NCBI GenBank assembly: GCA_964409365.1
Contig: CAYPCX010000004.1
Span: 21,015-85,014 of the forward strand
Source: an uncultured Planctomycetia bacterium
GTDB taxonomy: Bacteria; Omnitrophota; Gorgyraeia; Tantalellales; Tantalellaceae
Direction of reading: 5' to 3'
Length of the DNA stretch: 64,000 nt
The notes beneath the pieces are model-generated. The model saw only the letters and a program-made list of their open reading frames with translations. It was not told where the DNA came from and did no database searches. The first letter of the stretch is position 1. The number at the start of each line of letters is the position of its first letter. A program made the position numbers and the translations under genes. This document shows, one piece after another, positions 8,965 through 37,545 of the stretch.

Positions 8965-10727
8965 AAATGCGTTTAAAGATCACCATATCTTTCTTTGCGG
9001 CCGGGTTTGTCCTTGCGGGGATAGGGTGGCTGGTCATAGTGCTGGGGCAGCCTGCCTTGGTGATGTTTGTGGCCATTCCGCTGGCGGCTCTTATTGTCGG
9101 GCTTTTTACGGGCGGGGTGGTCTTCAGGAACCTCGCGGGAGTGGCGAAAGGGGCCAGTATCGTGCGTTCTGGCAGTCTGGAGTACAAGATCGGCACGAAG
9201 GCCAACGACGAGGTCGGCCAGATCTCGAGGGATATTGACGGTATCGCGGAAGACCTGAAAAAAGCGCGTTTTTCGATCGACGTGCTTAACATGGAAAGGA
9301 CCAGGTTCGACAAGACCGAGAAAGAGCTCTCGGCAAGAGAGGAACACTTCAGGAATCTTTTTGAACATTCTAACGACGCGGTCTTTATACATGATCTTGA
9401 CGGAAAGCTCATAGACGTGAACAACAAGGCATGCGAGATGCTGGGTTACGATAAAGAAACGCTCCTGGGGATACCCTTCATGGATCTGCAGACAGAGGAA
9501 GAGCTTACCAGCTCCAAAGAGGCGCGCAGGATAGGCGATGAAAAGTGCGCGGTGCGTTTCGAATCCAAACTCAGGAAGGTCGACGGGGTGCCTATTAACG
9601 TCGAGATCAGTTCCAGCGTGGTGGACCTTAAGAAGGGGATAATGCAGGCGATAGTCCGCGATATAACCGAACGAAAAAAGCTGGAAGAGGCGCTGAAGGA
9701 GTCCGAGGAAAAATTCCGCACGTTCATGGAAACGGCCAGCGATCTGATGTACATAACAAGCAAATACGGCGAGCTGAAATACGTGAACCAGACCATGGCG
9801 AGCGCGCTCGGCTATACGGTTCAAGAGATGCAGGGAGGCATGCACATCACCGATATCATGGAGGACAAGACAAAAGAGGCCTTTAAGGGGCAGCACAGGC
9901 AGCTGGTCACGAACGGGGAAGTAATGTATGAGCCTGTCTGGGAGACCAAGAACCGGAGGAAGATCTACGGGGAAGTCAAAGAAAGCTCCATTTATGATAT
10001 GCAAGGCAGGTTTGCCGGGAGCAGGGGGGTCTTTCGTGATATAACCGAACGCAAGAAGATCGAAGAAGCCCAGCGGCTGGCGCAGCTGGGGAAACTGGCC
10101 GCTGACGTGGCGCATGAGGTGAACAACCCGGTGACAGTTATCTCGGCAAGGGCCCAGCTTTACCTGCGGGATGAAAAGGTTGACGAAAAGATCAAGAAGA
10201 ACCTTGAAATAATAGTCCAGCAGTGCGAGCAGGCCCAGAGCATCGTGCACAGGCTGCTCAAATTTTCCAAGCCCAGCAGAGGCGAGATAAAGGAGATAGA
10301 TATAAACGATACGATCAAAAGCGTGATAAACCTGGTAGAACCGCACTTCCGCGGTTCCGCGGTACGCCTGGCCACGGAACTCATGCCGTCACCTTCCCGC
10401 GTAAAGGCGGATGAAAAACATATGCAGGAAGTTTTCATGAACCTTCTCAGGAACGCCGCCGAAGCTATGCCGGACGGAGGCACGGTCACGGTGAAGACAT
10501 CGCTGGACGGTGATAATGTCCGCATAGATTTTATTGATACCGGCAGCGGGATCGCGGAAGAGGACCTGAAAAGGATATTCGACCCGTTCTTCACTACAAA
10601 AGAGAACGGGACCGGCCTGGGCCTTTCTGTTTGTTACGGCATACTCAAGAGCCACGGCGGCGACCTGAAGTATAAGTCCAGGCCGGGCGAAGGCACTACC
10701 GCCACTGTTCTTCTCCCCGCCGGGTAG
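8961..10727 (+). CDS. Membrane PAS/PAS sensor histidine kinase (HAMP, 2x PAS, HisKA, HATPase)
   Basis: N-terminal 2 TM; PAS signatures (NDAVFIHDLDGKLIDVNNKACEMLGY); H-box AHEVNNPVT; G-box GTGLGLSV; ATGA overlap with upstream gene. Confidence 0.85.
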   Translation: MKMRLKITISFFAAGFVLAGIGWLVIVLGQPALVMFVAIPLAALIVGLFTGGVVFRNLAGVAKGASIVRSGSLEYKIGTKANDEVGQISRDIDGIAEDLKKARFSIDVLNMERTRFDKTEKELSAREEHFRNLFEHSNDAVFIHDLDGKLIDVNNKACEMLGYDKETLLGIPFMDLQTEEELTSSKEARRIGDEKCAVRFESKLRKVDGVPINVEISSSVVDLKKGIMQAIVRDITERKKLEEALKESEEKFRTFMETASDLMYITSKYGELKYVNQTMASALGYTVQEMQGGMHITDIMEDKTKEAFKGQHRQLVTNGEVMYEPVWETKNRRKIYGEVKESSIYDMQGRFAGSRGVFRDITERKKIEEAQRLAQLGKLAADVAHEVNNPVTVISARAQLYLRDEKVDEKIKKNLEIIVQQCEQAQSIVHRLLKFSKPSRGEIKEIDINDTIKSVINLVEPHFRGSAVRLATELMPSPSRVKADEKHMQEVFMNLLRNAAEAMPDGGTVTVKTSLDGDNVRIDFIDTGSGIAEEDLKRIFDPFFTTKENGTGLGLSVCYGILKSHGGDLKYKSRPGEGTTATVLLPAG

Positions 10728-10744
10728 AATTTGCCCTTGCCTAA

Positions 10745-10772
10745 ATCATGTGCTATGTTATAATCTTTTTTA
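10745..10772 (+). promoter_or_regulatory. sigma70-like promoter (TTGCCT-16-TATAAT) upstream of tRNA-Phe region
   Basis: ttgcct aaatcatgtgctatgt tataat read in sequence. Confidence 0.4.
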
Positions 10773-10776
10773 ACCG

Positions 10777-10970
10777 GCGCCACGGTAGCTCAGCAGGTTC
10801 CCCGAACCCTTTTAGGGTTCGGGATAAAAGCAACCGGGCAGTCTCATTTTCCCCGAACCCTTTCAGGGTTCGGGATAAATTCGGCCATACAACTTATGTT
10901 CGCTGGCGCTCCATAAGTTGTGGCCTCATTTAGAGCAGGGATTTGGCATATAGAGGACTTGGCATTGTGG
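10777..10970 (+). repeat. Pseudo-tRNA-Phe fragment (5' 22 nt of tRNA-Phe duplicated) interrupted by two 33-bp palindromic direct repeats and a third hairpin
   Basis: ggcgccacggtagctcagcaggt at 10777 is identical to the 5' end of the intact tRNA at 10970; tagagcaggg fragment at 10931; repeats ttccccgaaccctttNagggttcgggataaa at 10798 and 10849. Confidence 0.6.
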
Positions 10971-10971
10971 C

Positions 10972-11047
10972 GCCACGGTAGCTCAGCAGGTAGAGCAGGG
11001 GACTGAAAATCCCTGTGTCGGTGGTTCGATTCCGCCCCGTGGCACCA
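10972..11047 (+). tRNA. tRNA-Phe (GAA)
   Basis: cloverleaf by eye; near-identical to E. coli tRNA-Phe core (AGAGCAGGGGAcTGAAAATCCC...GGTTCGATTCC); CCA encoded. Confidence 0.9.
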
Positions 11048-11054
11048 TTTTATT

Positions 11055-11089
11055 AAAAAACCCGGCTAATATTACAGCCGGGTTTTTTG
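11055..11089 (+). terminator. Rho-independent terminator (cccggct-N8-agccggg + T6), bidirectional-looking
   Basis: A-run, 7-bp GC stem, T-run read in sequence. Confidence 0.7.
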
Positions 11090-11514
11090 TTAATTCGGTT
11101 CTTCATAGGGGGAAACGAGAGTTTCCCCCTCTTGACGGTCGCTTCGCGACCTGTCACCCCCTTCCCATAGGTTTTAAGGAATCATGCCTGCTTTCTGGAT
11201 CAAAGAAGAAGGGGGAAGTATATCCCCCTTCTTCTTTGGAATAATATTCCCCTAAATTTGTGCTTTACTTTATATTATTGCTGGATGGGACAGGCCCCCT
11301 CAAGTTGTCTCTAGGATCGCATGCCACGTGTCGGGACCTTAGCTCGCTATGCTGGCGCTGGGGCGGTTACCGCTCCTTGTCCATGGTATTGCAGGAACGA
11401 CGAGGCGGGATTTTGTTCTGTTTTAAGACAAGATACAATATGTTCGGGTTGAGGGCTAGATCACTCGAAGAAACTTGAAAAAAGCCGAAGAGCCTCGTGT
11501 TCCATCTGTAAACC

Positions 11515-11730
11515 ATACGTAACCAGTTCCCAGTAACCAGTTCCCAGTAACCAGTAACCAGTAACCAGTAACAAGGAAAAAGGAAAAAGGAAAAAGTATC
11601 AAGTGTTGAGTTGTGAGTTGTTAGTCATGAGTTGTACGACTCAATACTAAGAACTAAAAGCTAACAACTAATATCTTCCAGGCATCTACGTTCTTCTGTC
11701 CTCTGTCTTCTGACCTCTGTTTTCTGACAC
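11515..11730. repeat. Composite heptad-array element: (CCAGTAA/CCAGTTC)n-(AGGAAAA)3-120-bp core (IR-L 11596..11715)-(NNCTGNN)5
   Basis: 7-nt periodicity throughout; core is the reverse complement of 18411..18530 (about 94% identity by eye). Confidence 0.85.
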
Positions 11731-11791
11731 CTGCGACCTTTCATCCCCCTCAAGTTGTATCTGGAATAGCAAGCCAGTATACTTACAAGAG

Positions 11792-14313: not shown

Positions 14314-15651
14314 ATGAAGATATTGACGTTTCCCGGGGGAGTACATCCCGAATATTTCAAGGATATCAGCATACGGGAGCCGCTTAGAGAAGCCCCCCTT
14401 CCGCGTGTCGCCGTAGTACCCCTTTCGCAGCATATAGGCGCGCCCAACCAACCCGTTGTGGCAAAGGGAGATACGGTCGAAGAAGGGCAGCTTTTGGCGA
14501 GGACCGACAGTTATGTCTCCAGTCCGGTTCATGCTCCTGTATTCGGGAAAGTAGCGGAGATAAAAAAGGCGTTCCACCCCTCATTAGGATATACTCCATG
14601 CGTGTTCATAGAACGTGACGGAACAAAAAAACCCAAAAAATACGCCGAGCAGGACGTAGAAAACCTTACTCCGCAAGACCTTGTAGAAAAGATCAAGGAT
14701 GCCGGCATCGTGGGTATGGGCGGCGCCGCGTTCCCCACTCATGTGAAGCTTAACGTCCCGGAAGGCAGGAAAATAGAGACCCTGGTGGTCAACGGCGCGG
14801 AATGCGAGCCGTATCTTACCTGTGACCACGTACTGATGACCCGTAAGACAGGGGAGATACTTAAGGGCATCGCTATCGTGATGAAGATACTCCAGCCGAA
14901 AAAGACCATTATCGCGGTAGAGGATAATAAAAAAGCGGCTATCTTCGCTTTCCAGAAACTTATAAAGGATTCCACACATAAGGCTATATCCCAGATAGAG
15001 ATAGCGTGTCTGAAGACAAAATATCCCCAGGGCGGGGAAAAGCAGCTGATAAAAGCGGTAGCGAACAGGGAAGTGCCCCCGGGGGGGTTGCCGCTTGACA
15101 TAGGGTTCCTGGTGCATAACGTGGGGACGATCAATGCCATATATGAAGCGGTTTACCTGAATAAGCCCCTCATAGAACGGGTGGTCACCATCTCGGGCGA
15201 CTGCATGAACAGGCCGGGGAATTATGTGATAAGAGTAGGCGCGACCATAAAGGATATCATCGAACAGTACGGCATAGAACTTTACAAAGAACCGAAAAAG
15301 ATAATCGTAGGCGGCCCCATGATGGGGTTCGCCCAGCCGCAGACGGAAGTCTCCGTGCTCAAAAGCACTTCCGGCGTGCTTTTCCTTTCAGAACAGCTTG
15401 CCGGGACCTGTGAAGAAGGGCAGTGCATAAGGTGCGCCAAGTGCGTCGACGTGTGTCCGGTCAATCTGATCCCTACGGATATCATGAGGAACGTGGATAA
15501 GGACAAGTGGGACGCGGTGGAAGAGCTGAACGCCGGTGACTGCATGGAATGCGGAGCGTGCGCTTATATCTGCCCGGCGCGGATACCGCTCGTCCATTAC
15601 ATCAAGGAAGGGAAGGCCGTGCTGGCCCGGAATAACAGGGGGAAAAAGTAG
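14314..15651 (+). CDS. rnfC: Rnf electron transport complex subunit C
   Basis: GMGGAAFPTHVKL NADH/FMN site; two 4Fe-4S CxxCxxCxxxCP motifs. Confidence 0.9.
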   Translation: MKILTFPGGVHPEYFKDISIREPLREAPLPRVAVVPLSQHIGAPNQPVVAKGDTVEEGQLLARTDSYVSSPVHAPVFGKVAEIKKAFHPSLGYTPCVFIERDGTKKPKKYAEQDVENLTPQDLVEKIKDAGIVGMGGAAFPTHVKLNVPEGRKIETLVVNGAECEPYLTCDHVLMTRKTGEILKGIAIVMKILQPKKTIIAVEDNKKAAIFAFQKLIKDSTHKAISQIEIACLKTKYPQGGEKQLIKAVANREVPPGGLPLDIGFLVHNVGTINAIYEAVYLNKPLIERVVTISGDCMNRPGNYVIRVGATIKDIIEQYGIELYKEPKKIIVGGPMMGFAQPQTEVSVLKSTSGVLFLSEQLAGTCEEGQCIRCAKCVDVCPVNLIPTDIMRNVDKDKWDAVEELNAGDCMECGACAYICPARIPLVHYIKEGKAVLARNNRGKK

Positions 15652-15654
15652 CCG

Positions 15655-16599
15655 ATGAACAAGCTGGCGTTGAGCGTTTCACCGCATATAGTTTCACCTA
15701 TGGACACGCGCTTTATGATGAAAGGCGTCGTCAAGGCGCTCATCCCGGCCATCATTGCCAGCTTGTATTTTTTCAGGTGGAAAGCAGCCGGCGTTATGCT
15801 GGTCTCGCTGGCGGGTTGTGTCATTACCGAATATCTGTTCCAGAAGCTTAGGAAGAGGAAGGTAAAGATAAACGATTTCAGCGCTGTGGTAACGGGTCTC
15901 TTGCTGGCGATGGTGCTTCCGCCGGCCATCCCGTTGTGGATGGCGTTCCTCGGAGGCGTTTTCGCCGTCGCTCTCGGGAAAGAGCTTTTCGGCGGCCTGG
16001 GACAGAACGTGTTCAATCCCGCGCTTCTGGCAAGGGCTTTTCTGATGGCGGCATTTCCCGTAGCACTTACTACGTGGACTCATCCCATAACGCTTGATGC
16101 CATGACCGGCGCCACGCCTCTCGGGGTCGCGAAATTCGACCACATAATGACGCCGTATCTTTCGCTTTTTATAGGCAACATTGGGGGCTCTATCGGTGAG
16201 ACGTCCGCGCTGGCCATACTTTTGGGGCTGGTGTATCTTTTATACAATAAGATAATCGACTACAGGATACCCGTGGCTTTTATCGGAACGGTCGCGCTCT
16301 TCGGGACGGTTCTTTACTTAATAGCCCCGCAAAAATATATGTCACCTCTTTTTTACGTACTGGCGGGCGGGCTTTTACTGGGAGCGGTATTCATGGCGAC
16401 CGACCCCGTGACGACTCCGGTCACGGCGAAAGGCCGCTGGATCTTCGGGATAGGCTGCGGGGTAATAACGATGCTCATCCGTCTGTGGGGAGGGCTTCCC
16501 GAGGGCGTGATGTATTCGATACTTTTCATGAACGCGTTCACCCCTCTTATAAACAGGATATCAAGGCCCGGAAGATTTGGAGAGACAAGTGGAAAATAG
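15655..16599 (+). CDS. rnfD: Rnf complex subunit D (NqrB/RnfD family)
   Basis: polytopic membrane protein; TGATPL FMN-attachment-type motif. Confidence 0.85.
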   Translation: MNKLALSVSPHIVSPMDTRFMMKGVVKALIPAIIASLYFFRWKAAGVMLVSLAGCVITEYLFQKLRKRKVKINDFSAVVTGLLLAMVLPPAIPLWMAFLGGVFAVALGKELFGGLGQNVFNPALLARAFLMAAFPVALTTWTHPITLDAMTGATPLGVAKFDHIMTPYLSLFIGNIGGSIGETSALAILLGLVYLLYNKIIDYRIPVAFIGTVALFGTVLYLIAPQKYMSPLFYVLAGGLLLGAVFMATDPVTTPVTAKGRWIFGIGCGVITMLIRLWGGLPEGVMYSILFMNAFTPLINRISRPGRFGETSGK

Positions 16600-17173
16600 T
16601 CCCCTCAGGCGCATATTCGGCAACACGGTCGTGAAGATGATAATCGCGCTGACTCTGGTAGGCGTCGTTTCGGGAGCGACGCTGGTAATGGTCTACAACG
16701 CGACGATAGATAAGATAAAATTCAACGTCAACCAGGCCCAGGACAGGGCCATCAGGGAGATCTTCAAGGATGCCGACAAGATAGAAGAGACGAAGGAAGA
16801 AGGCGTTTTCAAGGTCACCGACAAGGAAGGAAAACTTCTCGGGTACGCGTTCACCGCCGAAGGCAACGGATACCAGGGGATCATAAAGATGATAGCGGGC
16901 GTCGATCCGGAGTTCACGAAACTGAACGGTATGGAGGTCATCGAATCACAGGAAACACCCGGCCTGGGAGCGGAAATAGCCGGGACCCCGTTCCGCAGCC
17001 AGTTCGAGGGGCTTTCGATCACGCATCCCATAGAGTATGTAAAGAACCAGAAACCGGTCGAGCCGTACCAGATAGAGGCCATAACCGGGGCCACGATATC
17101 TTCCCGGGCCGTGGTGAACATCCTGAACATAAGGATAGGCGAGATCAAGAAGGTTTTGAGAGGCGAAGGATGA
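16577..17173 (+). CDS. rnfG: Rnf complex subunit G (FMN-binding)
   Basis: single N-terminal TM; ITGATISS covalent-FMN motif. Confidence 0.85.
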   Translation: MERQVENSPLRRIFGNTVVKMIIALTLVGVVSGATLVMVYNATIDKIKFNVNQAQDRAIREIFKDADKIEETKEEGVFKVTDKEGKLLGYAFTAEGNGYQGIIKMIAGVDPEFTKLNGMEVIESQETPGLGAEIAGTPFRSQFEGLSITHPIEYVKNQKPVEPYQIEAITGATISSRAVVNILNIRIGEIKKVLRGEG

Positions 17174-17781
17174 TAAAAGATCTCATTAAAGGCCTGTGGC
17201 GGGAAAACCCCGTGTTCGTCCAGGTGCTGGGCATGTGCCCCACGCTGGCCGTGACTACAAAAGCCCTTTTCGGGTTTTCGATGGGGATGGCCACGACCTT
17301 TGTAGTGGTGTCTTCCGGCGTGGTCATCTCGGCCATCAGGAGGTTCGTTCCGGAGCAGGTCCGCATACCGATGTTCACGGTCATCATAGCTACGTTCGTT
17401 ACCGCGGCCGACTATTTTCTTAAGGCTAATTTTTACGAGATAAGCAAAGCCCTGGGTCCGTACGTACCGCTCATAGTCGTGAACTGTGTCATACTCGGAC
17501 GGGCGGAAGCGTTCGCTTCCAAGCACAACGTGTGGAGGTCCTTTCTGGACGCGCTGGGCATGGGTATAGGTTTTACCTGCGCGCTGATAGTTCTGGGAGC
17601 GGTAAGGGAACTTCTGGGTTCCGGCACGGTCTTCGGCTACAATGTTATGTGGGAAGGGTTCACGAAATGGGTCGTGATGGTCCTTCCGGCGGGCGCTTTT
17701 ATAACGCTTGGCCTTCTGGTAGGGATCTTCAACGTGATAGATAATAAGGTCAAGGCAAGAGGGGAGGGCAGGCAGAAATGA
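17170..17781 (+). CDS. rnfE: Rnf complex subunit E
   Basis: RnfA/RnfE/NqrDE family 6-TM protein; position in operon. Confidence 0.85.
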   Translation: MIKDLIKGLWRENPVFVQVLGMCPTLAVTTKALFGFSMGMATTFVVVSSGVVISAIRRFVPEQVRIPMFTVIIATFVTAADYFLKANFYEISKALGPYVPLIVVNCVILGRAEAFASKHNVWRSFLDALGMGIGFTCALIVLGAVRELLGSGTVFGYNVMWEGFTKWVVMVLPAGAFITLGLLVGIFNVIDNKVKARGEGRQK

Positions 17782-18368
17782 AGATCATAAATGATCTTAT
17801 CCTTATATTCCTGGCTGCCGTCATCACGAACAACTTCGTGCTGACGTACTTTCTGGGCATATGTCCCTTTATAGGCGTATCGAACAAGATAGACAGCGCG
17901 ATAGGGCTCGGTATGGCCACGACGTTCGTAATGACCATGGCCGCGACGGTCACGTGGATCATATATCATTACATACTTGTTCCGTTCAACCTGGAGTTTT
18001 TGCAGTACGTAACGTTCATCATAGTTATAGCGAGTTTCGTGCAGTTCGTGGAGATGTTTATAAAGAAGGTCTCTCCGCCTCTTTATAAGGCGTTAGGTAT
18101 TTTCCTTCCGCTTATCACCACGAACTGCGCAATTCTGGGTCTTACGCTTTTCATGGTGCTTAAAGATTACGAGTTCCTCGAGTCGGTCATCTTCGGTTTC
18201 GGCGCGGGTGTGGGTTTTACGCTGGCCCTTGTTCTCATGGCCGGGATACGCGAAGAACTCGAGTTCGCCGACATCCCGGGACCCCTTAAAGGGTCGGGCA
18301 TCACCCTGATACTGGCGGGGATGCTTGCCCTGGCGTTCATGGGTTTCGGCGGTATTATAAGCAGGTGA
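17778..18368 (+). CDS. rnfA: Rnf complex subunit A
   Basis: RnfA/NqrE family; position in operon. Confidence 0.85.
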   Translation: MKIINDLILIFLAAVITNNFVLTYFLGICPFIGVSNKIDSAIGLGMATTFVMTMAATVTWIIYHYILVPFNLEFLQYVTFIIVIASFVQFVEMFIKKVSPPLYKALGIFLPLITTNCAILGLTLFMVLKDYEFLESVIFGFGAGVGFTLALVLMAGIREELEFADIPGPLKGSGITLILAGMLALAFMGFGGIISR

Positions 18369-18410
18369 TCCGTTGCGTGAGGATCGAGAGTTTAGATGTC
18401 AGGTCTTAGG

Positions 18411-18572
18411 GGTCAGAAGACAGAGGACAGAAGGACGTAGATGTCTGGAGGATATTAGTTGTTAGCTTTTAGTTCTTAGTTTTTAGTCGTACAACTCATG
18501 ACTAACAACTTACAACTCAACACTTGATACTGGTAACTGGTAACTGGTAACTGGTAACTGGTAACTGGTAAC
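18411..18572. repeat. IR-R core (18411..18530, reverse complement of 11596..11715) followed by (CTGGTAA)x6
   Basis: manual reverse-complement comparison; few mismatches. Confidence 0.85.
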
Positions 18573-18591
18573 AGAACACACAATATGAACC

Positions 18592-19401
18592 ATGGATAAT
18601 CTGATGATAACGGCGATATTGAGCATGGCGGGACTGGCGATAGCGTTCGCGGCGGTCCTTGCGTTCGCCAACACGAAATTAAGGGTAGAGGAAGACCCGA
18701 GGGTGGACGTCATCAACCATCTTCTACCAGGGATCAATTGCGGCGCGTGCGGGTACCTCAGCTGCCACGACCTTGCGGAGCACGTGGTAAGGGAGGGGGA
18801 GGATCCCGCGAAATGCCGTGTAGTGGACGAGGAGACCAGGGAAAAACTTCTTGAGCTGACGGGCAGAGAGGGCGAAACGACTTATCCCTACATACCGCTT
18901 GTGCGGTGCGCGGCCGAATGGGAGCACAAGAAGAAAGAAGGAGTGGAGTATAAAGGCATCAAAACGTGCGCGGCGGCTAACCTCGCCTTCGGCGGGGGCA
19001 TGGACTGTGAATACGGCTGCATGGGGTTCGGCGACTGTGCCGAAGTATGTCCTTTCGACGCGCTCCATATGGAAAATGGCCTTCCCCGGCTCGACCAGGA
19101 GAAATGCACCGGTTGCGGAAAATGCGTCGAGGCATGCCCGCGCAACATCATAGTCCTTCAGGAGAAAAGGTTCGAGAAATTGTTTTACGTCGCTTGCAGC
19201 ACGCATGACGGGGCCTTAAGGGTCAGAGAGATCTGCAAGGTCGGCTGTATAGCCTGCGGGATATGCGAGAAACTTTCCCAGGAAGGGTTTTTCAAGGTAA
19301 CGGACAACCTCTCAAGGGCGGATTACTCCAAACAGGCCGACCCCGAAAAGGTAAGGCCCATAGCCGCCAAATGTCCGACGAAGGTGATAAAGGAAATTTA
19401 G
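18592..19401 (+). CDS. rnfB: Rnf complex subunit B (polyferredoxin)
   Basis: N-terminal TM; CGACGYLSC cluster; CTGCGKCVEACP and additional 4Fe-4S motifs. Confidence 0.85.
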   Translation: MDNLMITAILSMAGLAIAFAAVLAFANTKLRVEEDPRVDVINHLLPGINCGACGYLSCHDLAEHVVREGEDPAKCRVVDEETREKLLELTGREGETTYPYIPLVRCAAEWEHKKKEGVEYKGIKTCAAANLAFGGGMDCEYGCMGFGDCAEVCPFDALHMENGLPRLDQEKCTGCGKCVEACPRNIIVLQEKRFEKLFYVACSTHDGALRVREICKVGCIACGICEKLSQEGFFKVTDNLSRADYSKQADPEKVRPIAAKCPTKVIKEI

Positions 19402-19437
19402 GAAACAGGTGGCAGGAAACAGGTAACAGGGAAAACA

Positions 19438-23344: not shown

Positions 23345-26300
23345 ATGAATAATTACTTTAACATACATAGATTGTGGTTCAAAACAGTTGCGACAGGCGT
23401 AGTATGCCTGTTCCTTCTGAATAATTTCTCCTTCGCGCTGGAACCGACCACGGGTCAAAGATCCTGTCATACCCTTTCTCCGCAGTCACGATTCCCATTC
23501 GTGATCAAAGATAGAGTAAATGAAACGGAACTCACGCAGAGGCTCCAGAATGACGCGGGGCTGATATACGTGAGCCTGCTGATAGGAAAGGTCCTGGCTG
23601 CCAACGGTAGCGTGATCAGCGACAGAGGCTTAAGAACGCTGATCGAAAGACACATTCTGCATATAGAACCTGTAAGTTTTGATTGGGAAAACCTCAGGAA
23701 AGAAGGGAAGACCTTTTGTCTTCCTTATACCGAAAAGGGCGGCAACCGGACAAGGATCCTTCGTTATTATTTACCGGAGGATAAACCTGAAGAGGCAATA
23801 GGGAAACGGTCCATACCTCTCGGAACGGGAAATGCCAGGGTTATTTTAGAGGATACCCGGGTAGACGTATCGGAATCTGTGTTTATTTTTAACGTTGGCA
23901 CCGATGATATAAAGGGAGGAACAGGAAGAGAACTGTACGAGACAAATAGAATAGCTCAGGGAATTTATGATAGAGCGGCAGAGGCCCTGGGGTGCGATGT
24001 TTCCATGTTGTTTTTAGAGGAAAAGAACAGGGGTATAACCGAACGGTGGGCTGTCGGCAACATTTTGTATGGGGTAGCCCTGTATGCGGCATTTTCCGGC
24101 AGAATGGAGACGAATGATGCTCCGATCGCGCTGGCCGGTAACAGTATGGGTGAGATAGGAGCCCTTATCGTGAGCGGCGCCGTGTCTTTGGAGGACGGTG
24201 TCAGGCTTGCCCGGTTTTGTGGACATTTTTTTGAGACGGTCGTAGATAAGGTCGATTATGGCGTCGTCATACTGGAAGGCATTGAGAGTGATGCTATCAA
24301 GGGTTTTCTTGATCCCGGAAAGGTCGAGCTGTTCCAGGATGTTTCTCCCAGCAGCATTTCCCTGGCTGTAAGCAGGGATGTCGACCATGAAGAACTGGTC
24401 AACCGGTTAAAAGAGGCCGGAGCGAGAAGAGCGCAATATTTCGAAAAGCCTTTGGTCAAAGGGTCTCATGTAAGCTGGTACAGTCGTTATGGGCAGGGCC
24501 TTGTAGATCAGATCAGGGAAATGAAGATAAGCGATCCGGAGATCCCCGTTATCTCGCCCGCGACAGGGGAGATCCTCACGACCGCTGACCAGGTAAGGGA
24601 AGATATCCAGACGCAGTTTTTTAGGCCGATCGCATGGCGCGGTGTGGTAGATAAGGCCGTGGAAAGCGGCGCAAGATCGATGCTGGCCTTCGGGCCGGGA
24701 TGGCGGATCATAAAAAGAACAGAATCGATGGGTTCCGGTATTGAGATTATCCCGGCGACGGATCTTGCGGAGCTTGAATCCTTGAAACATAAGGTCAGGG
24801 GGTTCGGTTCCGAGAATTTAAGGCCGGATATCGGTACTGTGGTGAAAGGGCAGGATGGGCATACTTATGAAATCAAAGAGATAATAACGACCGGGGGAAC
24901 AGCCATTATTTTCGGGGCCAGGGATATGGAAACGAGCAAGAACGTCGCGATAAAATTCCTGGATTTTTCTATTGTGCCGGAACCGGAAGAATTTATAAAG
25001 CTGTTCAAACGGGAAGTGGATGTTTTGAAAAAAGGGTTCACGTTCGCGCCTGGTTTTTATGACTGGAATATCGTCGATGATCCCAAAGGTTATGGTTGGA
25101 TAGCTATGGAAAAGCTCGAAGGCGTTGAATTGTGGAAATGGGCAGCGGATAAATATCAGGATCAGACGATAGGTGTGCAGGAGAAGGTGAGAGATATAGT
25201 AGAAATAGTGCAGAAAGTCCTCAACCATATGAGTGCCTTATATGAAAACGGCATTCAGTATCGCGAAGTGAACCGGAAAAATATTATCGTTACTCCGGAG
25301 AGCGAACCGAAGCTAGTAGATTTCGTCGGCGCGTGCGTTCCCGGGCATGACCCAATACCATTGAATAAACTTCCGTGCACCCCGAACTATTTACCGCCTG
25401 ATAGACACCGTGAAATAAAACTCAAAGGTCCGGGGGTCCTTGACGATGTGACAACTCCGCAGTACGACGTTTTTCAGATGGGCGTGTTGCTGTTCCACCT
25501 GGCTCGCATGACAGGCCCACCTGATGACGGTTCTTATTGGGATGTCTCATTCACATACGAGACATATACCCGGGAAAAGATCGAAGATATGTTGCCGCCT
25601 GCTTGGAAAAGGTTTGCCGGTGTTATTTTTAAAGCCACCGCTCGGGAGCTTGAAGACCGCTACGAGAGCGCGGAAGAAATGAAACGCGCCATTGAGGAGC
25701 AGGAAGATGCACCAGGTTCCGAAGGATTTGGTGATGGGACTCATGGCCCGGATTTCGGAAAATCAAACCGAAAAAAGTTCTGTTTAGTCGCAATGGGCGC
25801 GGTATCTCCCTGGGTGGTGCTGATTCTATTAGCTGGCATGGTCATATGTGATATGGTCTACGGCGTAATAAACCACGAAAGGTTCTACCAGGTGATCCTC
25901 AACAAACACCCGAAGCTTACCCTCGCGCTTAAAAACCTCTTCTACCGCCAGTACTTGCCTGATCTTATCTCAAAACCCCTCCAGAGGTGGGCTGTTTCAG
26001 CGCTGGGCCGTTTGATGGACAAGATAAAAGAATTCACCGATAAACTCCCGGGAATAAGATTTAGGGATCCAGTTGTTGTCATGGAGGCCGAACTTGCGGG
26101 GACGGGAGACAAAGTAATCAGTGACATCGGCTTCCAGGTGCCGATCGTATTCGAGATGTCCAAGTCCGGCAGAAAGGGCAGAGGAAGGGGATCCAATAAA
26201 AGAAGGAAACAGATGTCCAAACGGCCCCCGGCCGCAGAGGAGCCCAAACCATACGATGACCTGATCTCCTGCGCGGGATATGCTTTAAATAACCTGGTGA

Positions 26301-29300
26301 TCGTCAGGGAACAACCTGAGATGCTACAAGCGGCAAAAGATTTTTACGCTTATTTATCTGAAGCAGGGAAAGACATCTTGGACCAGTTGAATATAGATGA
26401 GAACAAACTACAGGATATAAGATCGATTTTGGAAGGAAGGGGTTTGTCTCCGGACATGGTCCGGTGTTTGAGGCAGGATGCGGAGATCATAACCGGCAGA
26501 ACGAAGGGTAAAGGTACGGTCAAAGCCTCCCCGAAAAGATTTTCGGACGATTATGAAATAGTCGAGGTCGCCGATGTAAAAACACTTGTTCCCGTTATTA
26601 TGTATGTTCAGGAAATGAAAGCGCGTGAAGTCACGGATGCGGAACTCTCATTATACGCGGTGACTGATGATGATTTGAGAAAAGGAGTTCGGATGCCGGA
26701 GAAATTACCGGCCGCAAAAGAGATGCTTTACAGGAAAGCGTTGAGAAACCTGAAAGATGTAAATTGGTACAAAAGGGGCTGGCAGGAAGTTCAGGGTTTA
26801 TCCCCGGCGAATAAACGTTTTCTGAAAGAAAAAGCGGAAGAGATATGCGGGGATAAACTTGAAAAGTGCTGGGGTTTTGTAGAAGGCATTTCAAGCGAGC
26901 AGGATTATGCCGAGAAACTAATGAGAACTGAGATTGCCACCGTGAACAGTATGCGTGATTTCACGGAGTTTATAATATTGTTGGCGTGTATTTACGGAGG
27001 CGAGCAGACGCATGATGAGATGCGCGTGGCCTTGGAAAATATAGAAAAAGAGCATGAAAATGCCGCCCTTCTCGGTGATGCGCCTGTTCTCGACAGACTT
27101 GACGAAGATGTATCGGTAAATGTAGGGACTTTCGCAAAGATCGCTTTTTCCTTTCTTGAACATGAAAAGGGCTTGGAAAGAGACAGTAAAGAGTACAGGG
27201 CGATACTGGATGCGGTACGGCGTATAAATTCCTCCGCTAAAGTGCAATGCCGGCCGGAATCGAGCGAGAGATGGATAAGGGACTTTTTGGCATGGATACA
27301 CGCGGGATTCAGGTATTATCTGATGCCGAAAGGCGGCGAGATATACGACGATCGGCATGGGCCGGGTGTGTTGCGTGAAGGCGGGGCCATTGTTCCGGGA
27401 AGGGCGGTAACACCCTTTACACTGGTATCCGGTGCCGTAAAAACTTCGGACGCCGAGCTTTTCTCCGCTGAGGCGGGGAAACTGGGAATATTTACTTATG
27501 TCCTTCCTCCCGGGTTTGTGACATGCCGGATATCTTCTACCGGAAGGAATATAATCCTTAAAACGGGGCACATTGATGTAGTCATGGGTGTTGTTCCGCC
27601 GGAGTTTACAAGCGATGGCAGAGCCAAACTCCTGATGGATCCGAGTTATCACAACCTGGTGAAAGACAACCCCGAATTTCTGCGTCTTTTGGAAGAACAG
27701 GGTTCTAATATGGATGTGGTCCTAATACATCCGGAAGAAACTTACCTTAACCTGGCCAATTTCAGCTCGCTCCTGGATGAAAATGGGCAGGTCAAACTGC
27801 TTTTTAATCACGACAAAGGCCTTACTTTGCCATATTTGAATTTGAAAACGGGTGTTCTTTTCCAGACGGATATGGAAATAACGGGAATGGCGGTTCTTAG
27901 GGGCCTGGTAAGGTGTATGACAAATATGCTTCCCGGGAGCTACGTAAAGGGAGGCGCCTCTACCAGCATCGTGATCCGTGATAGCGGTATGCCACCCGGT
28001 GTGGCGACAGGCCTTCATGCGTTAAGTAAGGACCCGGAACTGAAAAGGGTGTTGCAGGAGCTTTGGATAAATAGATTGACGATAACTGGGACTAAATTTC
28101 GTCCTATGTCCCTGGTCCATTATGATTCGTCAACCCGGAGGATTCTCGTCCAGTTGGGGAATGATCTTGTAAATGATCCCAGCGCCGCCTGCGATTATGT
28201 TATTAATTACTTAGAAGCAACCCGGCAGCGTCTGTGCCAGGATATGGGTATATCTGTCCAGGGGTTTGGTGATACCCGACAGATGGGTGGATCGGCCCCG
28301 GCTCCGGCCGGTATGTTCCCGTGGATGTGGCGCGTCTATGATCCGATAAAAAGAGGTCTTGAGAAGAGGGACTGGCCGGCGCGCCGGATCGCCGGTCTGA
28401 TAGGCGGCCTGGAAGAGCTGGGGATCGCGGGCCTGGTCATGAACGGGGCAGCTTTTGCGTTAAGTTATTTTTGCGGGATGCCTTTTATAACAGCTCTTCT
28501 GGTGACTTCAGCGGTCGCGGTGCCGTTTTTTCCGGCAGGACATATTAGAGGACGGTATTATATTCAAGGAGGGGGATTTGCCCCCGCTTTGCCTTCTAAT
28601 TTCTGGAAGGATATGGGCGTCCTTACAGTTCTTGGACTTACGACAAGATCCCTGCAGCTATTGCCTGTCGCAATGGTATGCGTGTTTAACCTTAATCCTG
28701 CCTTTACGCTGGTCGGCATCCCGCTTGCCGTTATCGCGCATGCTTATTATAACCATTCCGTAGCGCCCGAACGCAACCGCCCTCTCGGCATGCCATGGAA
28801 AGGTAAACCCCACAAGTGGACGCCGGAACGTATATCTGAAGAGCTTCGCATGATGTATTTTGACGGAGTGGATTCAAGAGGTGTGAAGTGCACACGTGAA
28901 GACCTTCGGATCGAAAAAATAAGAGACCATTATCAGGGTCTTGCTGTTGCGGTCCCGAGGACTTGGAAGGAAATGCTGAAGGAACAGGGAGTATCAGAGA
29001 ACAGCCGCCTTTATATTTACATGTCCGGGGAAGGCAGAAATCCCAGGGAAGGTATTAATAAGGCAGGATGGGAGTATTTCTGGGCGACGATCGGAGTGAA
29101 TTACGAAAGAGATATTGAAAAGAAACCGGGTGCTGCAGAAGGGGCTTATATACCGAACGCGACCGATAGCGGCATAGAACACCGTGATTTGAAAAAGTTC
29201 GTTCCGGAAGAAGATGAGCTGTTCGGTATTGTCAGGGAAATGTTGGGCGGGGAAGATCTCACTGAACACGAGATAGCTGATATCATCCTCAACGCGCCCG

Positions 29301-32038: not shown

Positions 32039-32040
32039 TA

Positions 32041-32077
32041 CAGGTCTCAGGTCACAGGTTTCAGGTAGCAGGTCACA
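32041..32077. repeat. (CAGGTNN)x5 heptad array just after giant ORF stop
   Basis: caggtct caggtca caggttt caggtag caggtca. Confidence 0.8.
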
Positions 32078-32142
32078 CAGCATAAAACCCTTGCGCATGA
32101 GTTCTATATTTGCTATAATTTGACACTCTGAACGAGATTTGA

Positions 32143-32217
32143 CGCGGGGTGGAGCAGAGGTAGCTCGTGAGGCTCATAACCTCAAGGTCGGCGGTTCGAT
32201 TCCGCCCCCCGCAACCA
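32143..32217 (+). tRNA. tRNA-Met (CAT), initiator-like (C1:A72 mismatch, close to E. coli tRNA-fMet)
   Basis: CGCGGGGTGGAGCAG...GCTCATAACC...GGTTCGATTCC...CCCCCGCAACCA. Confidence 0.85.
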
Positions 32218-32221
32218 ATAT

Positions 32222-32253
32222 AAAAACCCGGCTGATTTTTAGCCGGGTTTTTC
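32222..32253 (+). terminator. Rho-independent terminator (cccggct-N7-agccggg + T5), same stem as terminator at 11055
   Basis: read in sequence. Confidence 0.7.
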
Positions 32254-33675: not shown

Positions 33676-33696
33676 TTCCCGATAAATTCACCATTT

Positions 33697-34698
33697 ATGA
33701 AAAAGATATCCTATAAAAGCGCCGGTGTCGATATCGACAGGGCCGACCGCCTTATCCGGGACGTGAAGAAACTCGTTAATACCACGAGAGTCAGGGGAAG
33801 CATGGATACGGTCGGGGGGTTCGGGGGCTTTTTTGACCCTTCCGCCGCAGGGATAAAGGATCCTGTACTTGTCGCCTCTACCGACGGGGTGGGAACGAAG
33901 CTCAAGATAGCTCAACTGGCCGGGAAACACGATACCGTGGGAATAGACCTTGTGGCGATGTGCGTGAACGATATCCTTTGCTCGGGCGCGCGCCCGCTGT
34001 TTTTCCTGGATTATTTCGCTACGGGGAAACTCGAAGAAAAGGTCTGGAGCGATGTGATCAAGGGCGTAGTCATAGGTTGTCACGAGGCCAGGTGCGCTCT
34101 TCTGGGGGGTGAAACGGCCGAGATGCCCGGCATGTACGCGAAGGGTGAATATGACCTTGCCGGGTTCGCCGTCGGAGCGGTAAGCAGGAAAAAGGTCATC
34201 GACGGGAAAAAGATCAGGCCGGGGGACGTGCTTCTGGGTCTGGCTTCCAACGGGCTGCATTCCAACGGTTATTCGCTCCTCAGGAAGGTTTTTCCGAAAA
34301 GATACCTGAAAAAGAACCATAGTCTTTTTCTTAAACCCACTGTTATATATGTGCGGCCTTTTCTCGGGCTTGCGCGGAACGTTACGATAAAAGGAGCTGC
34401 CAATATAACGGGCGGCGGTTTCTATGACAATATCCCGAGGATGCTTCCCGCCGGAGTGAAAGCTGTCATCAGCAAGGGAAGCTGGAACGTGCATAAAGTG
34501 TTCAAGCTTATACGGGAAAGGGTGAAGATAAGCGAAAAAGAACTTTACCGGACGTTCAACATGGGGATCGGGATGGTACTTGCCCTTTCTCCGCAGGACG
34601 CCGAAAAAGCGCGAAAGATGCTTGCTAAAAAATTCAAACTGAAAAGCTGGGTCATCGGCAAGATCGTTAAAGGTAAAAAACGCGTCGAGCTCGTATAA
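33697..34698 (+). CDS. purM: Phosphoribosylformylglycinamidine cyclo-ligase (AIR synthetase)
   Basis: YKSAGVDIDRAD N-terminus; PurM-family glycine-rich motifs. Confidence 0.9.
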   Translation: MKKISYKSAGVDIDRADRLIRDVKKLVNTTRVRGSMDTVGGFGGFFDPSAAGIKDPVLVASTDGVGTKLKIAQLAGKHDTVGIDLVAMCVNDILCSGARPLFFLDYFATGKLEEKVWSDVIKGVVIGCHEARCALLGGETAEMPGMYAKGEYDLAGFAVGAVSRKKVIDGKKIRPGDVLLGLASNGLHSNGYSLLRKVFPKRYLKKNHSLFLKPTVIYVRPFLGLARNVTIKGAANITGGGFYDNIPRMLPAGVKAVISKGSWNVHKVFKLIRERVKISEKELYRTFNMGIGMVLALSPQDAEKARKMLAKKFKLKSWVIGKIVKGKKRVELV

Positions 34699-34733
34699 CT
34701 CAATACTCGACACTCAATACTTGATACTTGATA
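34698..34733. repeat. (CTYRANA)x5 heptad array between purM and purD
   Basis: ctcaata ctcgaca ctcaata cttgata cttgata. Confidence 0.8.
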
Positions 34734-34748
34734 AGAAGGAATAAACAC

Positions 34749-36029: not shown

Positions 36030-36071
36030 CAAATGTCGAAATTCAAAAGGCAAAATGTCCGGGAGAATGAT

Positions 36072-36563
36072 ATGAAAAAGAAACCTCAGGTCAGTATAGT
36101 CATGGGAAGCGATTCGGACCTTCCCGTCATGAAAGAGGCAAGCGCTGTTCTCAGGGAGTTCAGCATACCCCATGAAGTGAGGATACTTTCGGCGCACCGT
36201 TCGCCGGACATGACGTCGGTCTTCGCGAAAGGCGCCAGGAAGAAGGGCATAAAGGTCATAATCGCCGGCGCGGGCGGAGCGGCCCACCTGGCGGGGGTGA
36301 TAGCGTCGCATACTACGCTCCCGGTCATAGGCGTTCCCATGGAGACGAAGCTGGACGGCATAGATTCGCTTCTTTCGACCGTGCAGATGCCGTCGGGGGT
36401 GCCGGTAGCGACAGTATCCATAGGGAAGGCGGGCGCGGTAAACGCCGCGATACTGGCGGCGCAGATAATCGGGGCGAACAATGCCGCGATCGGCAAAAAG
36501 GTGGGAACTTATAAGAAAAAGCTCGTCCGGAAGATCCGGGAGAAGAACCGGAAGCTGAAATAG
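36072..36563 (+). CDS. purE: N5-carboxyaminoimidazole ribonucleotide mutase
   Basis: GSDSDLPVMKEA and SAHRSP signatures; GGGAGA RBS before ATG 36072. Confidence 0.9.
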   Translation: MKKKPQVSIVMGSDSDLPVMKEASAVLREFSIPHEVRILSAHRSPDMTSVFAKGARKKGIKVIIAGAGGAAHLAGVIASHTTLPVIGVPMETKLDGIDSLLSTVQMPSGVPVATVSIGKAGAVNAAILAAQIIGANNAAIGKKVGTYKKKLVRKIREKNRKLK

Positions 36564-36565
36564 GG

Positions 36566-37476: not shown

Positions 37477-37482
37477 TAGAAT

Positions 37483-37545
37483 GCAGAAGGCAGAGGACAG
37501 ATTGTTCATTTCTTTTATCTGTTTTCTGACTTCTGATTTCTGAAA
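37483..37545. repeat. Forward (CAGANGG)x3 and reverse-complement (TCTGNNN)x4 heptad arrays forming imperfect long hairpin between rpiB and glyA
   Basis: read in sequence. Confidence 0.7.

Follow-up and report, generated by a model that had tools for sequence, protein, structure and literature searches.

Decayed and cis-mobilizable integrative elements are att-flanked remnants that have no recombinase of their own; the known examples are kilobases long, and their att sites are common to an identified autonomous element. Integrase crossover sites lie in the loops of symmetric stem-loops. At the tyrT locus of E. coli, for which Rfam lists rtT, repeats of ~178 bp each end in the last 19 nt of tRNA-Tyr, and the repeat units are cotranscribed with the tRNA. 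As far as Williams 2002 is cited in PMC4383910, attL and attR with a displaced fragment of the tRNA gene are a signature of integration, and Islander recognizes tRNA-integrated islands by this fragment configuration and its orientation (PMC4383910). Islander requires an integrase in the interval and a length of 2-200 kb, and its survey gave 3' fragments in 3760 islands and 5' fragments in 159, an attP of ~250 bp, and crossover sublocations in the anticodon loop, the T-loop, and the T/acceptor junction (PMC4383910). Integrative elements and tyrosine recombinases are reported to be common in Omnitrophota genomes (bioRxiv 10.64898/2026.06.07.730766).

We analyzed 64 kb of DNA from an uncultured Omnitrophota bacterium (this whole stretch is the window; coordinates refer to it and features to its + strand) and found 170 bp of hairpin-rich DNA between a promoter and the body of a tRNA-Phe gene. 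We read this locus as the footprint of recombination targeted at tRNA-Phe, most likely integration by an element of the tyrosine-integrase type, and our confidence in this reading is about even. A preliminary description of the DNA had proposed a scar or a partial duplication of the tRNA-Phe gene, and the anatomy supports this: the extra DNA lies between the gene and its promoter and comes with an exact 23-nt duplication. The intact tRNA-Phe(GAA) gene is at 10972-11047 (ARAGORN; 68.2 bits with the Rfam tRNA model). In a repeat scan, GGCGCCACGGTAGCTCAGCAGGT occurred in exactly two copies, at 10776-10798 and 10969-10991 (193 nt from start to start), each consisting of 3 leader or flanking nucleotides (GGC) and nt 1-20 of tRNA-Phe; shuffled sequences gave 0 matches for the duplication. 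The right copy is within the intact tRNA-Phe segment (10969-11047). The left copy is an orphan, an exact 5'-end fragment (23/23) of the kind that Islander uses, and its last base is the penultimate base of the D-loop. It had been described as the first 22 nt of tRNA-Phe, 193 bp upstream. The duplication and the spacing hold, but the extent is 3 flanking nucleotides plus nt 1-20, and the repeat starts at 10776 rather than at 10777.

A second piece of the tRNA gene is present within the interval. The repeat scan placed TAGAGCAGGG at 10931-10940, where it equals nt 20-29 of tRNA-Phe (10991-11000) and spans the end of the D-loop, the 3' strand of the D-stem, A26, and the first 3 nt of the anticodon stem; this agrees with the earlier match of a tagagcaggg fragment to the D/anticodon-stem junction. 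TAGAGCAGGG resumes the tRNA-Phe sequence exactly where the first orphan fragment ends. Because the two are collinear, together they make up an orphan copy of -3 to +29 with an interruption of ~132 nt, which implies at least two events. By our own arithmetic, the chance of a 9-nt continuation at any of ~170 positions is ~6e-4. The 132-nt block opens with TCCCCGAA and closes with GGCCTCATT. Neither in this block nor in the 170-nt block do the two ends form inverted repeats, and only a single T is ambiguous at the junction. If the insert is read as a circle, the predicted junction has GGCATTGT directly before the 23-mer and TCCCCGAA after it. Directly upstream of the intact gene, a 28-nt joint (10941-10968; repeat scan and leader fold) pairs with the orphan fragment when the leader is folded alone. 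The joint region contains two direct 11-mers, GGATTTGGCAT and GGACTTGGCAT (10939-10949 and 10955-10965), which are 16 nt apart, and a second TAGAG.

The orphan copy is not recognized as a pseudo-tRNA. ARAGORN and the Rfam model called only 10972-11047, with no second tRNA in 10700-11300 even at E up to 10, so the suggestion that such a search might yield a pseudo-tRNA call was not borne out. A GTGGC resembling an acceptor 3' end just upstream of tRNA-Phe was discarded; 3 of its 5 bases come from the 23-nt repeat, and the match is not significant. After the gene, an inverted-repeat scan found a terminator-type hairpin with a 13-bp stem and a T-run (11055-11088). Further downstream, a heptamer-rich intergenic module at 11554-11732 is repeated at 18394-18572.

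The filler between the repeats contains three hairpins. The palindrome CCCGAACCCTTT(T/C)AGGGTTCGGG occurs at 10801-10823 and 10852-10874, in each case as the stem of a 31-nt direct repeat (repeat scan and folding). Hairpin repeat 1, TTCCCCGAACCCTTTTAGGGTTCGGGATAAA, covers 10798-10828 and has a perfect 10-bp stem and a 3-nt loop; hairpin repeat 2 covers 10849-10879. The repeats are identical at 30 of 31 positions, with the single difference in the loop, and recur with a period of 51 nt, leaving 20 nt between repeats and 28 nt between palindromes. Each folds at -18.8 kcal/mol (repeat 1, z = -4.2). Two direct repeats of a perfect palindrome had already been noticed; their lengths are corrected here from 33 to 31 nt, and the gap from 18 to 20 or 28 nt. 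The third hairpin, reported before as one with a 10-bp stem, is unrelated to the other two and lies at 10883-10925 (inverted-repeat scan and folding). It reads GGCC-AT-ACAACTTATG, a 13-nt loop, and CATAAGTTGT-GGCC, so that its arms at 10889-10898 and 10912-10921 are lengthened by GGCC/GGCC, and it folds at -19.6 kcal/mol (z = -5.0).

Two 31-nt palindromic direct repeats around a unique 20-nt spacer (AGCAACCGGGCAGTCTCATT, 10829-10848) recall a CRISPR-like mini-array, which might be an RNA anti-CRISPR, a single stand-alone repeat unit, or an RNA that acts as an antitoxin or regulates Cas. In addition, the flanks of the repeat, GTTCCCCG...CGGGATAAA, appear similar to the ends of the type I-E repeat GAGTTCCCCGCGCCAGCGGGGATAAACCG, including the AUAAA at the start of the crRNA 5' handle. 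However, a 20-nt spacer with a period of 51 nt departs widely from real arrays, with their 60-61 nt; the palindrome has a stem of 10 bp rather than 6-7 bp, and the setting is the leader of a housekeeping tRNA. Moreover, a search of the 64-kb window gave no other match to the spacer, not even a partial target, there was no Cas domain among the ORFs scanned, and no CRISPR-DR family matched the leader with Rfam at E up to 10. We therefore give a mini-array a very slight probability. Redrawing the region as a "neo-CRISPR" with a 32-nt repeat and a 28-nt spacer was also rejected, as these lengths are inverted relative to real arrays and the scanned ORFs include no cas genes.

A chimeric join at a short repeat would make all of this an artefact: the short exact repeats lie at tRNA genes, where metagenome assemblies often break, and Logan contigs do end inside tRNAs. 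However, the tRNA-Phe region, with both copies and the insert, is 100% identical in the Logan assemblies SRR6963311 and SRR14699967 and in the JGI contig Ga0310068_1000203. A second locus in the window, at tRNA-Gln, is likewise 100% identical in Logan assemblies. Since three further assemblies are identical, the structure at tRNA-Phe is not an assembly artefact, and the residual doubt is negligible. We also compared the gene neighborhood with that of relatives. Orthologues of the kinase (55-58% identity) retain the upstream HEAT-HD-kinase order, and in the relatives examined none is followed by a tRNA. TauE orthologues share no gene order with the locus, and a 100%-identical TauE cluster yielded only an identical contig. 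None of the relatives examined keeps a tRNA at this position or has a homologous leader for tRNA-Phe.

The promoter of the gene lies on the far side of the insert. A consensus scan found only one promoter-like site on the + strand upstream of tRNA-Phe, a sigma-70-like TTGCCT, 16 nt, TGtTATAAT at 10737-10764 (10/12 matches, with an upstream TG), 10 nt past the stop codon of the histidine-kinase gene. A good sigma-70 promoter had been reported at 10745-10772; it is present, but slightly to the left of that position. It adjoins the orphan fragment as expected for a normal tRNA gene, and between the 23-nt repeats the consensus scan found no promoter-like or terminator-like site. Because tRNA-Phe lacks a promoter-like site closer to it and the insert lacks a terminator, the gene would have to use the old promoter. 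We infer that it is now made as a precursor with a ~200-nt, three-hairpin leader, which RNase P would remove. An ORF of 61 aa at 10748-10933 was rejected as a gene: it starts inside the promoter, its repeats are the translated DNA repeat, and it has no PHROGs match.

The leader could instead be a selected functional RNA, namely, a structured 5' leader, a stable small RNA that RNase P sets free, or a regulatory device that tunes tRNA-Phe maturation through competition of the orphan fragment for the acceptor 3' strand. A strong promoter immediately precedes the leader and no terminator intervenes, the predicted fold is much more stable than those of shuffled sequences (z = -4.3 for the leader and -4.7 for the full precursor), and the sole difference between the hairpin repeats is in the loop. 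In an equilibrium model, the orphan fragment pairs with the acceptor 3' strand with P = 0.96, favored by 4.2 kcal/mol, and the leader folded alone closes on itself through the orphan fragment; the orphan 5' fragment is thus predicted to be able to rival the genuine 5' strand in pairing with the acceptor 3' strand. However, strong folding is a trivial consequence of the perfect palindromes and of the duplication, and one loop substitution cannot separate selection from recency. No homologous leader was seen in the relatives examined, and over the leader no Rfam family besides tRNA was found at the gathering score or at E up to 10, where the sole weak match overlapping the hairpin repeats was to a microRNA precursor. 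Taken together, selection for a functional leader seems improbable.

The hairpins might also mark a small nonautonomous transposable element (a MITE, a REP/BIME cluster, or an IS200/IS605-derived element) inserted into the tRNA gene. Subterminal hairpins at IS200/IS605-type ends have an arrangement comparable to that of the two perfect hairpins, which are nearly identical and directly oriented. The ~132-nt block splits a collinear tRNA fragment with a duplication of at most 1 nt and without inverted ends, which fits an element that makes no target duplication, and the genome has other repeated intergenic modules, such as the heptamer-rich one. However, the 64-kb window contains the palindrome nowhere else (0 expected), and 185,579 GTDB species representatives, JGI metagenome contigs, and IMG/VR, when scanned for exact matches, returned only 7 unrelated single ones, in high-GC organisms; this search covers the window and those collections, which do not include the source genome. 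The insert lacks terminal inverted repeats, and the earlier idea of a MITE-like, multicopy hairpin element finds no support in these results.

We searched as well for a donor element and for a recombinase. The 23-mer and a 20-mer of tRNA-Phe, the 21-mer of tRNA-Gln, the third hairpin, and a core of the tRNA-Gln insert gave nothing in IMG/VR. With blastn, the tRNA-Phe region likewise had no match in INPHARED phages or PLSDB plasmids, and the tRNA-Gln region had none in INPHARED phages. Among the ORFs scanned in the window, no Pfam match to an integrase, a transposase, or a phage protein was found; the scan left out 12 ORFs, one of 2897 aa and eleven identified only by gene order with L023. The unannotated ORFs had no PHROGs match. 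With no transposase domain among the scanned ORFs, and with both the 23-nt duplication and the tRNA-Gln case, whose filler is unrelated, left unexplained, a hairpin-bearing transposable element is distinctly unlikely.

At tRNA-Gln, 41 kb from tRNA-Phe, we found the mirror image of the tRNA-Phe pattern. An intact tRNA-Gln(TTG) at 51845-51920 (ARAGORN and repeat scan) includes the left copy of a second exact 23-nt repeat (51898-51920), which starts at the third T-loop base and consists of the last 21 nt of the tRNA plus 2 flanking nucleotides. Similarity and repeat scans define an insert of 198 nt between the repeats (51921-52118), with an inverted T-arm-like 13-mer at 51960-51972. The orphan 3' fragment lies downstream at 52119-52141 (23/23 exact, 221 bp from start to start) and is followed by a perfect hairpin with 11 bp and a 3-nt loop at 52140-52164, so that the two features occupy 52119-52164 (repeat scan and folding). 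Alignment and the repeat scan also point to a possible older, degenerate tRNA-Gln relic at 52269-52294, made of two collinear weak matches to the anticodon arm and the T-arm; these score 17 each and are individually inside the shuffle range. The preliminary description did not mention the pattern at tRNA-Gln. The tRNA-Phe and tRNA-Gln inserts show no similarity to each other or to the rest of the window, and Rfam gave no rtT match at either locus at E up to 10. In two relatives with the identical ispE-spoVG-tRNA-Gln-glmU-prs order, only 64 and 47 nt are found at this place, and there is no duplication. Since relatives with the conserved order lack it, the tRNA-Gln structure is a lineage-specific insertion. 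The 64 kb contains no exact close direct repeats of at least 16 nt other than the two 23-nt ones, each of which lies at a tRNA gene. The mirror-image case points to tRNA-directed recombination rather than to a hairpin transposon.

The tRNA-Gln case also bears on a local rearrangement without a mobile element. Here, an ancestral tandem tRNA-Phe pair, or a duplication of the part of the gene near the promoter by slippage or template switching, would have been followed by decay of the upstream copy and by small tandem duplications (two hairpin units and two TAGAG...TTGGCAT units). Short duplications of local sequence do make up the region: the 31-nt repeats recur at a distance of 51 nt, the 11-mers recur at 16 nt, and TAGAG is present twice. 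The orphan copy also preserves collinearity with the tRNA over -3 to +29, and neither a recombinase among the scanned ORFs nor a donor element in the searched collections was found. The E. coli tyrT repeats would be a precedent for recombination products at tRNA loci. However, a tandem duplication should leave similarity past 23 nt, and identity ends abruptly at both edges. The filler hairpins have no source elsewhere in the window, and the tRNA-Gln structure is an insertion relative to the relatives, with unrelated filler. Loop boundaries and terminal fragments are expected for site-specific recombination, and by our own estimate random breakpoints would give them in ~8% of cases. We consider local rearrangement rather unlikely.

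An integration scar would account for the shared features of the two loci. Both have an end fragment on the correct side and in the correct orientation, 5' upstream for tRNA-Phe and 3' downstream for tRNA-Gln. The inner repeat boundaries fall in the loops of symmetric stem-loops, the D-loop for tRNA-Phe and the T-loop for tRNA-Gln. The intervals, 193 and 221 bp with one repeat included, are near the size of attP, and both hold palindromes and short direct repeats such as occur in att arms. If this reading is right, the original tRNA-Phe gene would have sat directly behind the promoter at 10737-10764, and incoming DNA would have entered by recombination within the 5' half of this gene. The piece next to the promoter (-3 to +20, or -3 to +29 with the TAGAGCAGGG relic) would then have been displaced upstream, and a replacement 5' piece from the incoming DNA would have regenerated an intact tRNA-Phe. 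The inserted DNA may since have been almost wholly lost, or may never have been larger than an att-sized module; what would remain is 170 bp with two repeated hairpins, a third hairpin, and two direct 11-mers. In a later step, the displaced fragment, which reached the anticodon stem, was probably split in the D-loop by a ~132-nt hairpin module. The relics at both loci suggest repeated use of the sites.

Several points weigh against the scar reading. No recombinase was seen among the scanned ORFs and no donor element in the searched collections, and the D-loop is not among the listed crossover sublocations of tRNA-targeting integrases (PMC4383910). The TAGAGCAGGG relic does not fit a single integration event. 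That both inserts are ~200 bp would be an odd coincidence if they arose by random internal deletion. Finally, no relative keeps a tRNA next to the kinase gene, and hence the ancestral state is unobserved there. A tentative proposal, to which we give only a small chance, is that the ~200-bp, recombinase-less inserts are complete miniature integrative modules that recur at tRNA genes of this lineage. Each would be essentially an attP (a core with arms that carry repeated, protein-binding palindromes) moved in trans by a tRNA-targeting integrase encoded elsewhere, and the tRNA-Phe copy would represent an undescribed crossover sublocation in the D-loop that replaces the 5' end. Such inserts are carried by 2 of the 4 tRNA genes in the window. 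If this proposal were true, the modules would impose long structured leaders and trailers on the tRNA precursors of the lineage.

Most likely, both loci are integration scars or att-sized mini-insertions, which appear to be of an ordinary kind and not a new system. The main value of the scar reading, if right, is in annotation: it would explain an odd tRNA leader and mark tRNA-Phe and tRNA-Gln as hot spots of recombination in a phylum about which little is known. Should the att-sized inserts themselves be mobile, or define a class of integration in the D-loop, they would add to the known target sublocations of integrases. Should the orphan fragment measurably interfere with tRNA-Phe folding, the locus would be a natural tRNA gene burdened by a competing copy of its acceptor strand.

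We compared both loci with the known systems. REP/BIME sequences, MITEs, and IS200/IS605-derived elements share with the tRNA-Phe insert the short, very stable extragenic palindromes that occur as a local pair, and IS200/IS605 ends also share hairpins in direct orientation without inverted ends. However, the palindrome here had no further copies where searched and no transposase was seen among the scanned ORFs, the terminal inverted repeats and target duplication of MITEs are absent, and the geometry relative to the insertion point is unlike that of characterized elements. The tRNA-Gln case resembles E. coli tyrT/rtT in having a unit of ~180-220 bp beside a tRNA gene that ends in a copy of the tRNA 3' terminus. 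It differs in being a single unit rather than a tandem array and in having no Rfam match, and the tRNA-Phe case differs further in lying upstream and involving the 5' end. As in cis-mobilizable and decayed elements, attL/attR-like repeats flank DNA without recombination genes; the remnant here, however, is att-sized, and no partner element was found in our searches. Compared with Islander-type islands, the intervals of 170 and 198 bp (193 and 221 bp from start to start) are under 2 kb, and neither contains an integrase, the only ORF of the tRNA-Phe interval being the one of 61 aa. The 23-nt repeat at tRNA-Phe ends in the D-loop (counting TAGAGCAGGG, the orphan copy extends as far as the anticodon stem), that interval contains an additional collinear tRNA relic, and the searches returned no donor element. 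Nevertheless, both loci share with these islands an intact tRNA gene accompanied by an exact fragment of its own end, on the correct side and in the same orientation, with identity that runs from a loop to a few nucleotides past the end of the gene, and at tRNA-Gln the boundary, at the third T-loop base, falls in a listed sublocation.

The source organism is an uncultured Candidatus Omnitrophota, and the best named homologues of the histidine kinase adjoining tRNA-Phe are from Omnitrophota, at no more than 58% identity. ARAGORN and Rfam call a sole tRNA-Phe gene, tRNA-Phe(GAA), at 10972-11047. We found that GGCGCCACGGTAGCTCAGCAGGT, which consists of 3 flanking nt and tRNA-Phe nt 1-20, has two exact copies, at 10776-10798 (the orphan fragment, a displaced 5' piece of the gene) and at 10969-10991; by chance, no match would be expected for this 23-nt repeat. 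The insert between the two copies carries two 31-nt direct repeats, TTCCCCGAACCCTTT[T/C]AGGGTTCGGGATAAA, at 10798-10828 and 10849-10879, separated by a unique 20-nt spacer. They are identical at 30/31 positions, the sole mismatch being the loop base, and each folds into a perfect 10-bp hairpin (-18.8 kcal/mol). An unrelated third hairpin follows at 10883-10925 (-19.6 kcal/mol), and TAGAGCAGGG, at 10931-10940, is the same as tRNA-Phe nt 20-29. Because TAGAGCAGGG resumes exactly at the end of the first fragment, the orphan copy is best seen as tRNA-Phe -3 to +29, split in the D-loop by about 132 nt. The insert also contains a 28-nt joint that holds the direct 11-mers GGATTTGGCAT and GGACTTGGCAT. 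Every element of the preliminary description (duplicated tRNA-Phe start, palindromes, third hairpin, tRNA fragment, and promoter) is present; its start shifts by 1 base, the repeats measure 31 nt rather than 33 nt, and their spacing is 20 or 28 nt, not 18 nt. Over the promoter, the insert, and the two copies of the 23-nt repeat, identity is 100% in two Logan assemblies from different sequencing runs and in one JGI assembly. Since these independent assemblies agree over the locus, an assembly artefact can in practice be excluded.

We searched for other copies of the hairpin and the insert. The palindrome has no other copy within the 64-kb window. In collections that lack the source genome, as its own two copies were not returned, exact scans with CCCGAACCCTNNNAGGGTTCGGG gave 3 matches in 185,579 species-representative genomes, 4 in JGI metagenome contigs, and 0 in IMG/VR. 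All seven are single palindromes on unrelated contigs, 6 of them at 64-71% GC, and are chance or terminator-like matches. The insert shows no similarity to the rest of the window, and blastn against phage and plasmid collections gave no match. The 132-nt block could be explained by a MITE, REP, or IS200/IS605-type hairpin element. However, no further copies in the window or, chance matches apart, in these collections, no terminal inverted repeats in the insert, and no transposase domain among the scanned ORFs were found, which leaves the proposed MITE-like reading unsupported, and such an element does not explain the 23-nt repeat; we consider it unlikely. The earlier suggestion of a scar or partial duplication of tRNA-Phe was right. 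The ends of the insert repeats presumably resemble a type I-E CRISPR repeat, and this prompted a reading as a CRISPR-like mini-array. However, Rfam, at E values up to 10, returned nothing in the leader, neither a CRISPR-DR family nor a second tRNA. Spacing and stem length also fail, and there are no cas genes among the scanned ORFs; a mini-array is barely credible.

Scans for partial tRNA duplications and for all close exact direct repeats yielded only two close repeats of at least 16 nt in the window, each 23 nt and each at a tRNA gene. The second is a mirror image at tRNA-Gln, where the last 21 nt plus 2 flanking nt (51898-51920, from the third T-loop base to 2 nt past CCA) recur downstream at 52119-52141, 221 bp apart. 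A perfect 11-bp hairpin with a 3-nt loop (52140-52164) directly follows the fragment copy, and Logan contigs confirm the sequence of the locus. The distance from tRNA-Gln to glmU is 388 nt in the window versus 64 and 47 nt in two relatives, L023 and L026, which have the same gene order and 70% GlmU identity and lack the duplication, hairpin, and relic. By this sequence comparison, the tRNA-Gln structure is clearly a lineage-specific insertion. Earlier events that have since decayed are suggested by weak collinear matches to tRNA-Gln at 52269-52294, farther downstream, and by inverted T-arm-like motifs. The tRNA-Phe and tRNA-Gln fillers are unrelated. A history of local duplication and decay, with no mobile element involved, would fit the many small local repeats at tRNA-Phe. 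However, the abrupt identity edges, the foreign filler, and the tRNA-Gln insertion do not fit, and we regard this explanation as possible but doubtful.

Eight perfect hairpins with stems of 9 bp or more and loops of 3-8 nt occur in the window, and every one adjoins a tRNA gene; shuffles give 0-4 per window. Five lie around tRNA-Phe (10801-11238), two around tRNA-Met (31879-32252), and one after the tRNA-Gln fragment (52140-52164). The terminator that follows tRNA-Phe is 74% like the one that follows tRNA-Met. Tandem arrays of 7-nt units (GTAACCA, AAGGAAA, TCTGACY, ACAGAAG, CAGGTTA, and others) occupy many intergenic spacers (1405-1436, 11519-11728, 18455-18572, 19400-19430, 32040-32074, 38834-38911, and 54509-54628); in this they bring to mind the short heptamers that occur in tandem in cyanobacteria. 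One heptamer-rich module, roughly 180 nt long, has two inverted copies, 84% complementary and 6.7 kb apart, one between tRNA-Phe and TauE (11554-11732) and the other between rnfA/E and rnfB (18394-18572). Unlike the tRNA-Phe hairpin, this module is a genuinely repeated intergenic element in the source genome. A 32-nt direct repeat (11295-11326 and 11745-11776, 84% identical) brackets the module immediately 5' of the TauE start codon, making it a third insert with a long flanking direct repeat, less than 1 kb from tRNA-Phe.

The surrounding DNA is a housekeeping part of the chromosome, with glycosyltransferases, an epimerase, PilZ, a HEAT-HD-kinase operon, TauE, tRNA-Thr, an MFS transporter, rnf genes, enolase, purB, nrdR, hisG, transketolase, ftsH, and ispE-spoVG-tRNA-Gln-glmU-prs. 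Genes 3' of prs, starting with ribosomal protein L25 and pth, have housekeeping roles too; Pfam was run on L25 and pth, and the others were named by gene order with L023. Among the ORFs scanned, which leave out one of 2897 aa at 23345-32038 and those named by gene order, there were no integrase, transposase, Cas, or phage protein domains. Very long proteins have been reported as a typical feature of Omnitrophota (bioRxiv 10.64898/2026.06.07.730766). Six consecutive minus-strand ORFs (33688-39308, 84-576 aa) downstream of tRNA-Met and purB have no Pfam or PHROGs match. The rnf cluster (14314-19401) is oddly spaced: rnfC and rnfD precede a gap of about 1.2 kb whose only long ORF (16693-17526, opposite strand) has no family match, beyond which lie the gene for an Rnf-Nqr membrane subunit (17778-18368), the heptamer module, and rnfB; rnfG and rnfE, which would be expected in the cluster, were not located. 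In four relatives, the genes upstream of the kinase orthologue stand in the same order as here, but those downstream differ and include no tRNA, and TauE orthologues share no gene order with the window. Thus, the available relatives give no readable ancestral state and no covariation alignment for the kinase/tRNA-Phe junction.

A strong promoter-like site (10737-10764; TTGCCT, 16 nt, TGtTATAAT) lies just 5' of the orphan fragment, the usual place for a tRNA promoter, and no further promoter-like or terminator-like site was found between it and tRNA-Phe. Transcription of tRNA-Phe from this site would give a precursor whose leader, about 200 nt long, holds three stable hairpins, none of them followed by a T-run, and RNase P would have to cut at 10972. 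The acceptor 5' strand and the 5' half of the D-arm are perfectly duplicated at the start of the leader, so two tRNA-like folds are in competition. In an equilibrium model of the precursor (10772-11047), the acceptor 3' strand is paired with the orphan fragment in preference to the genuine 5' strand, with probability 0.96 and an advantage of 4.2 kcal/mol. Folded alone, the leader closes on itself, the orphan fragment pairing with 10955-10971; such closure during transcription would sequester the fragment before the tRNA 3' end emerges. The modeled competition may affect tRNA-Phe in vivo. That the leader itself, or a small RNA, was selected upstream of tRNA-Phe seems very unlikely.

Site-specific integration into tRNA genes leaves a recognizable signature: the intact gene, together with an exact copy of part of its own end that lies on the correct side and points the same way as the gene. 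Islander relies on exactly these criteria and counts 3' fragments at 3760 islands and 5' fragments at 159 (PMC4383910). Both loci show this fragment, configuration, and orientation. However, both lack an integrase and the length of an island (193 and 221 bp), and therefore we do not call them islands; attP is described as about 250 bp (PMC4383910). At both, the inner repeat boundary lies in the loop of a symmetric stem-loop, the D-loop in tRNA-Phe and the T-loop in tRNA-Gln. We read both, at about even odds, as scars of tRNA-directed integration, or as att-sized mini-insertions. At tRNA-Phe, the local duplications and the collinear TAGAGCAGGG relic would call for at least one extra event. An element parting a tRNA gene from its promoter would bring selection to delete the element's interior, an attractive if unproven idea; that pressure, if it acted, would explain why little insert is left. 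Integrative elements and tyrosine recombinases are reportedly frequent in Omnitrophota genomes (bioRxiv 10.64898/2026.06.07.730766). Against an integration scar, the scanned ORFs include no recombinase, no donor was found, and random deletion would make the near-equal sizes of the remnants an awkward coincidence. The D-loop boundary is also not among the crossover sublocations listed for tRNA-targeting integrases (PMC4383910). Att-only mini-elements mobilized in trans, with a D-loop target, are an improbable alternative. Compared with known systems, the tRNA-Phe structure is a variant of the well-known tRNA-gene integration footprint, without a recombinase, unusually small, and paired with a mirror case at tRNA-Gln.
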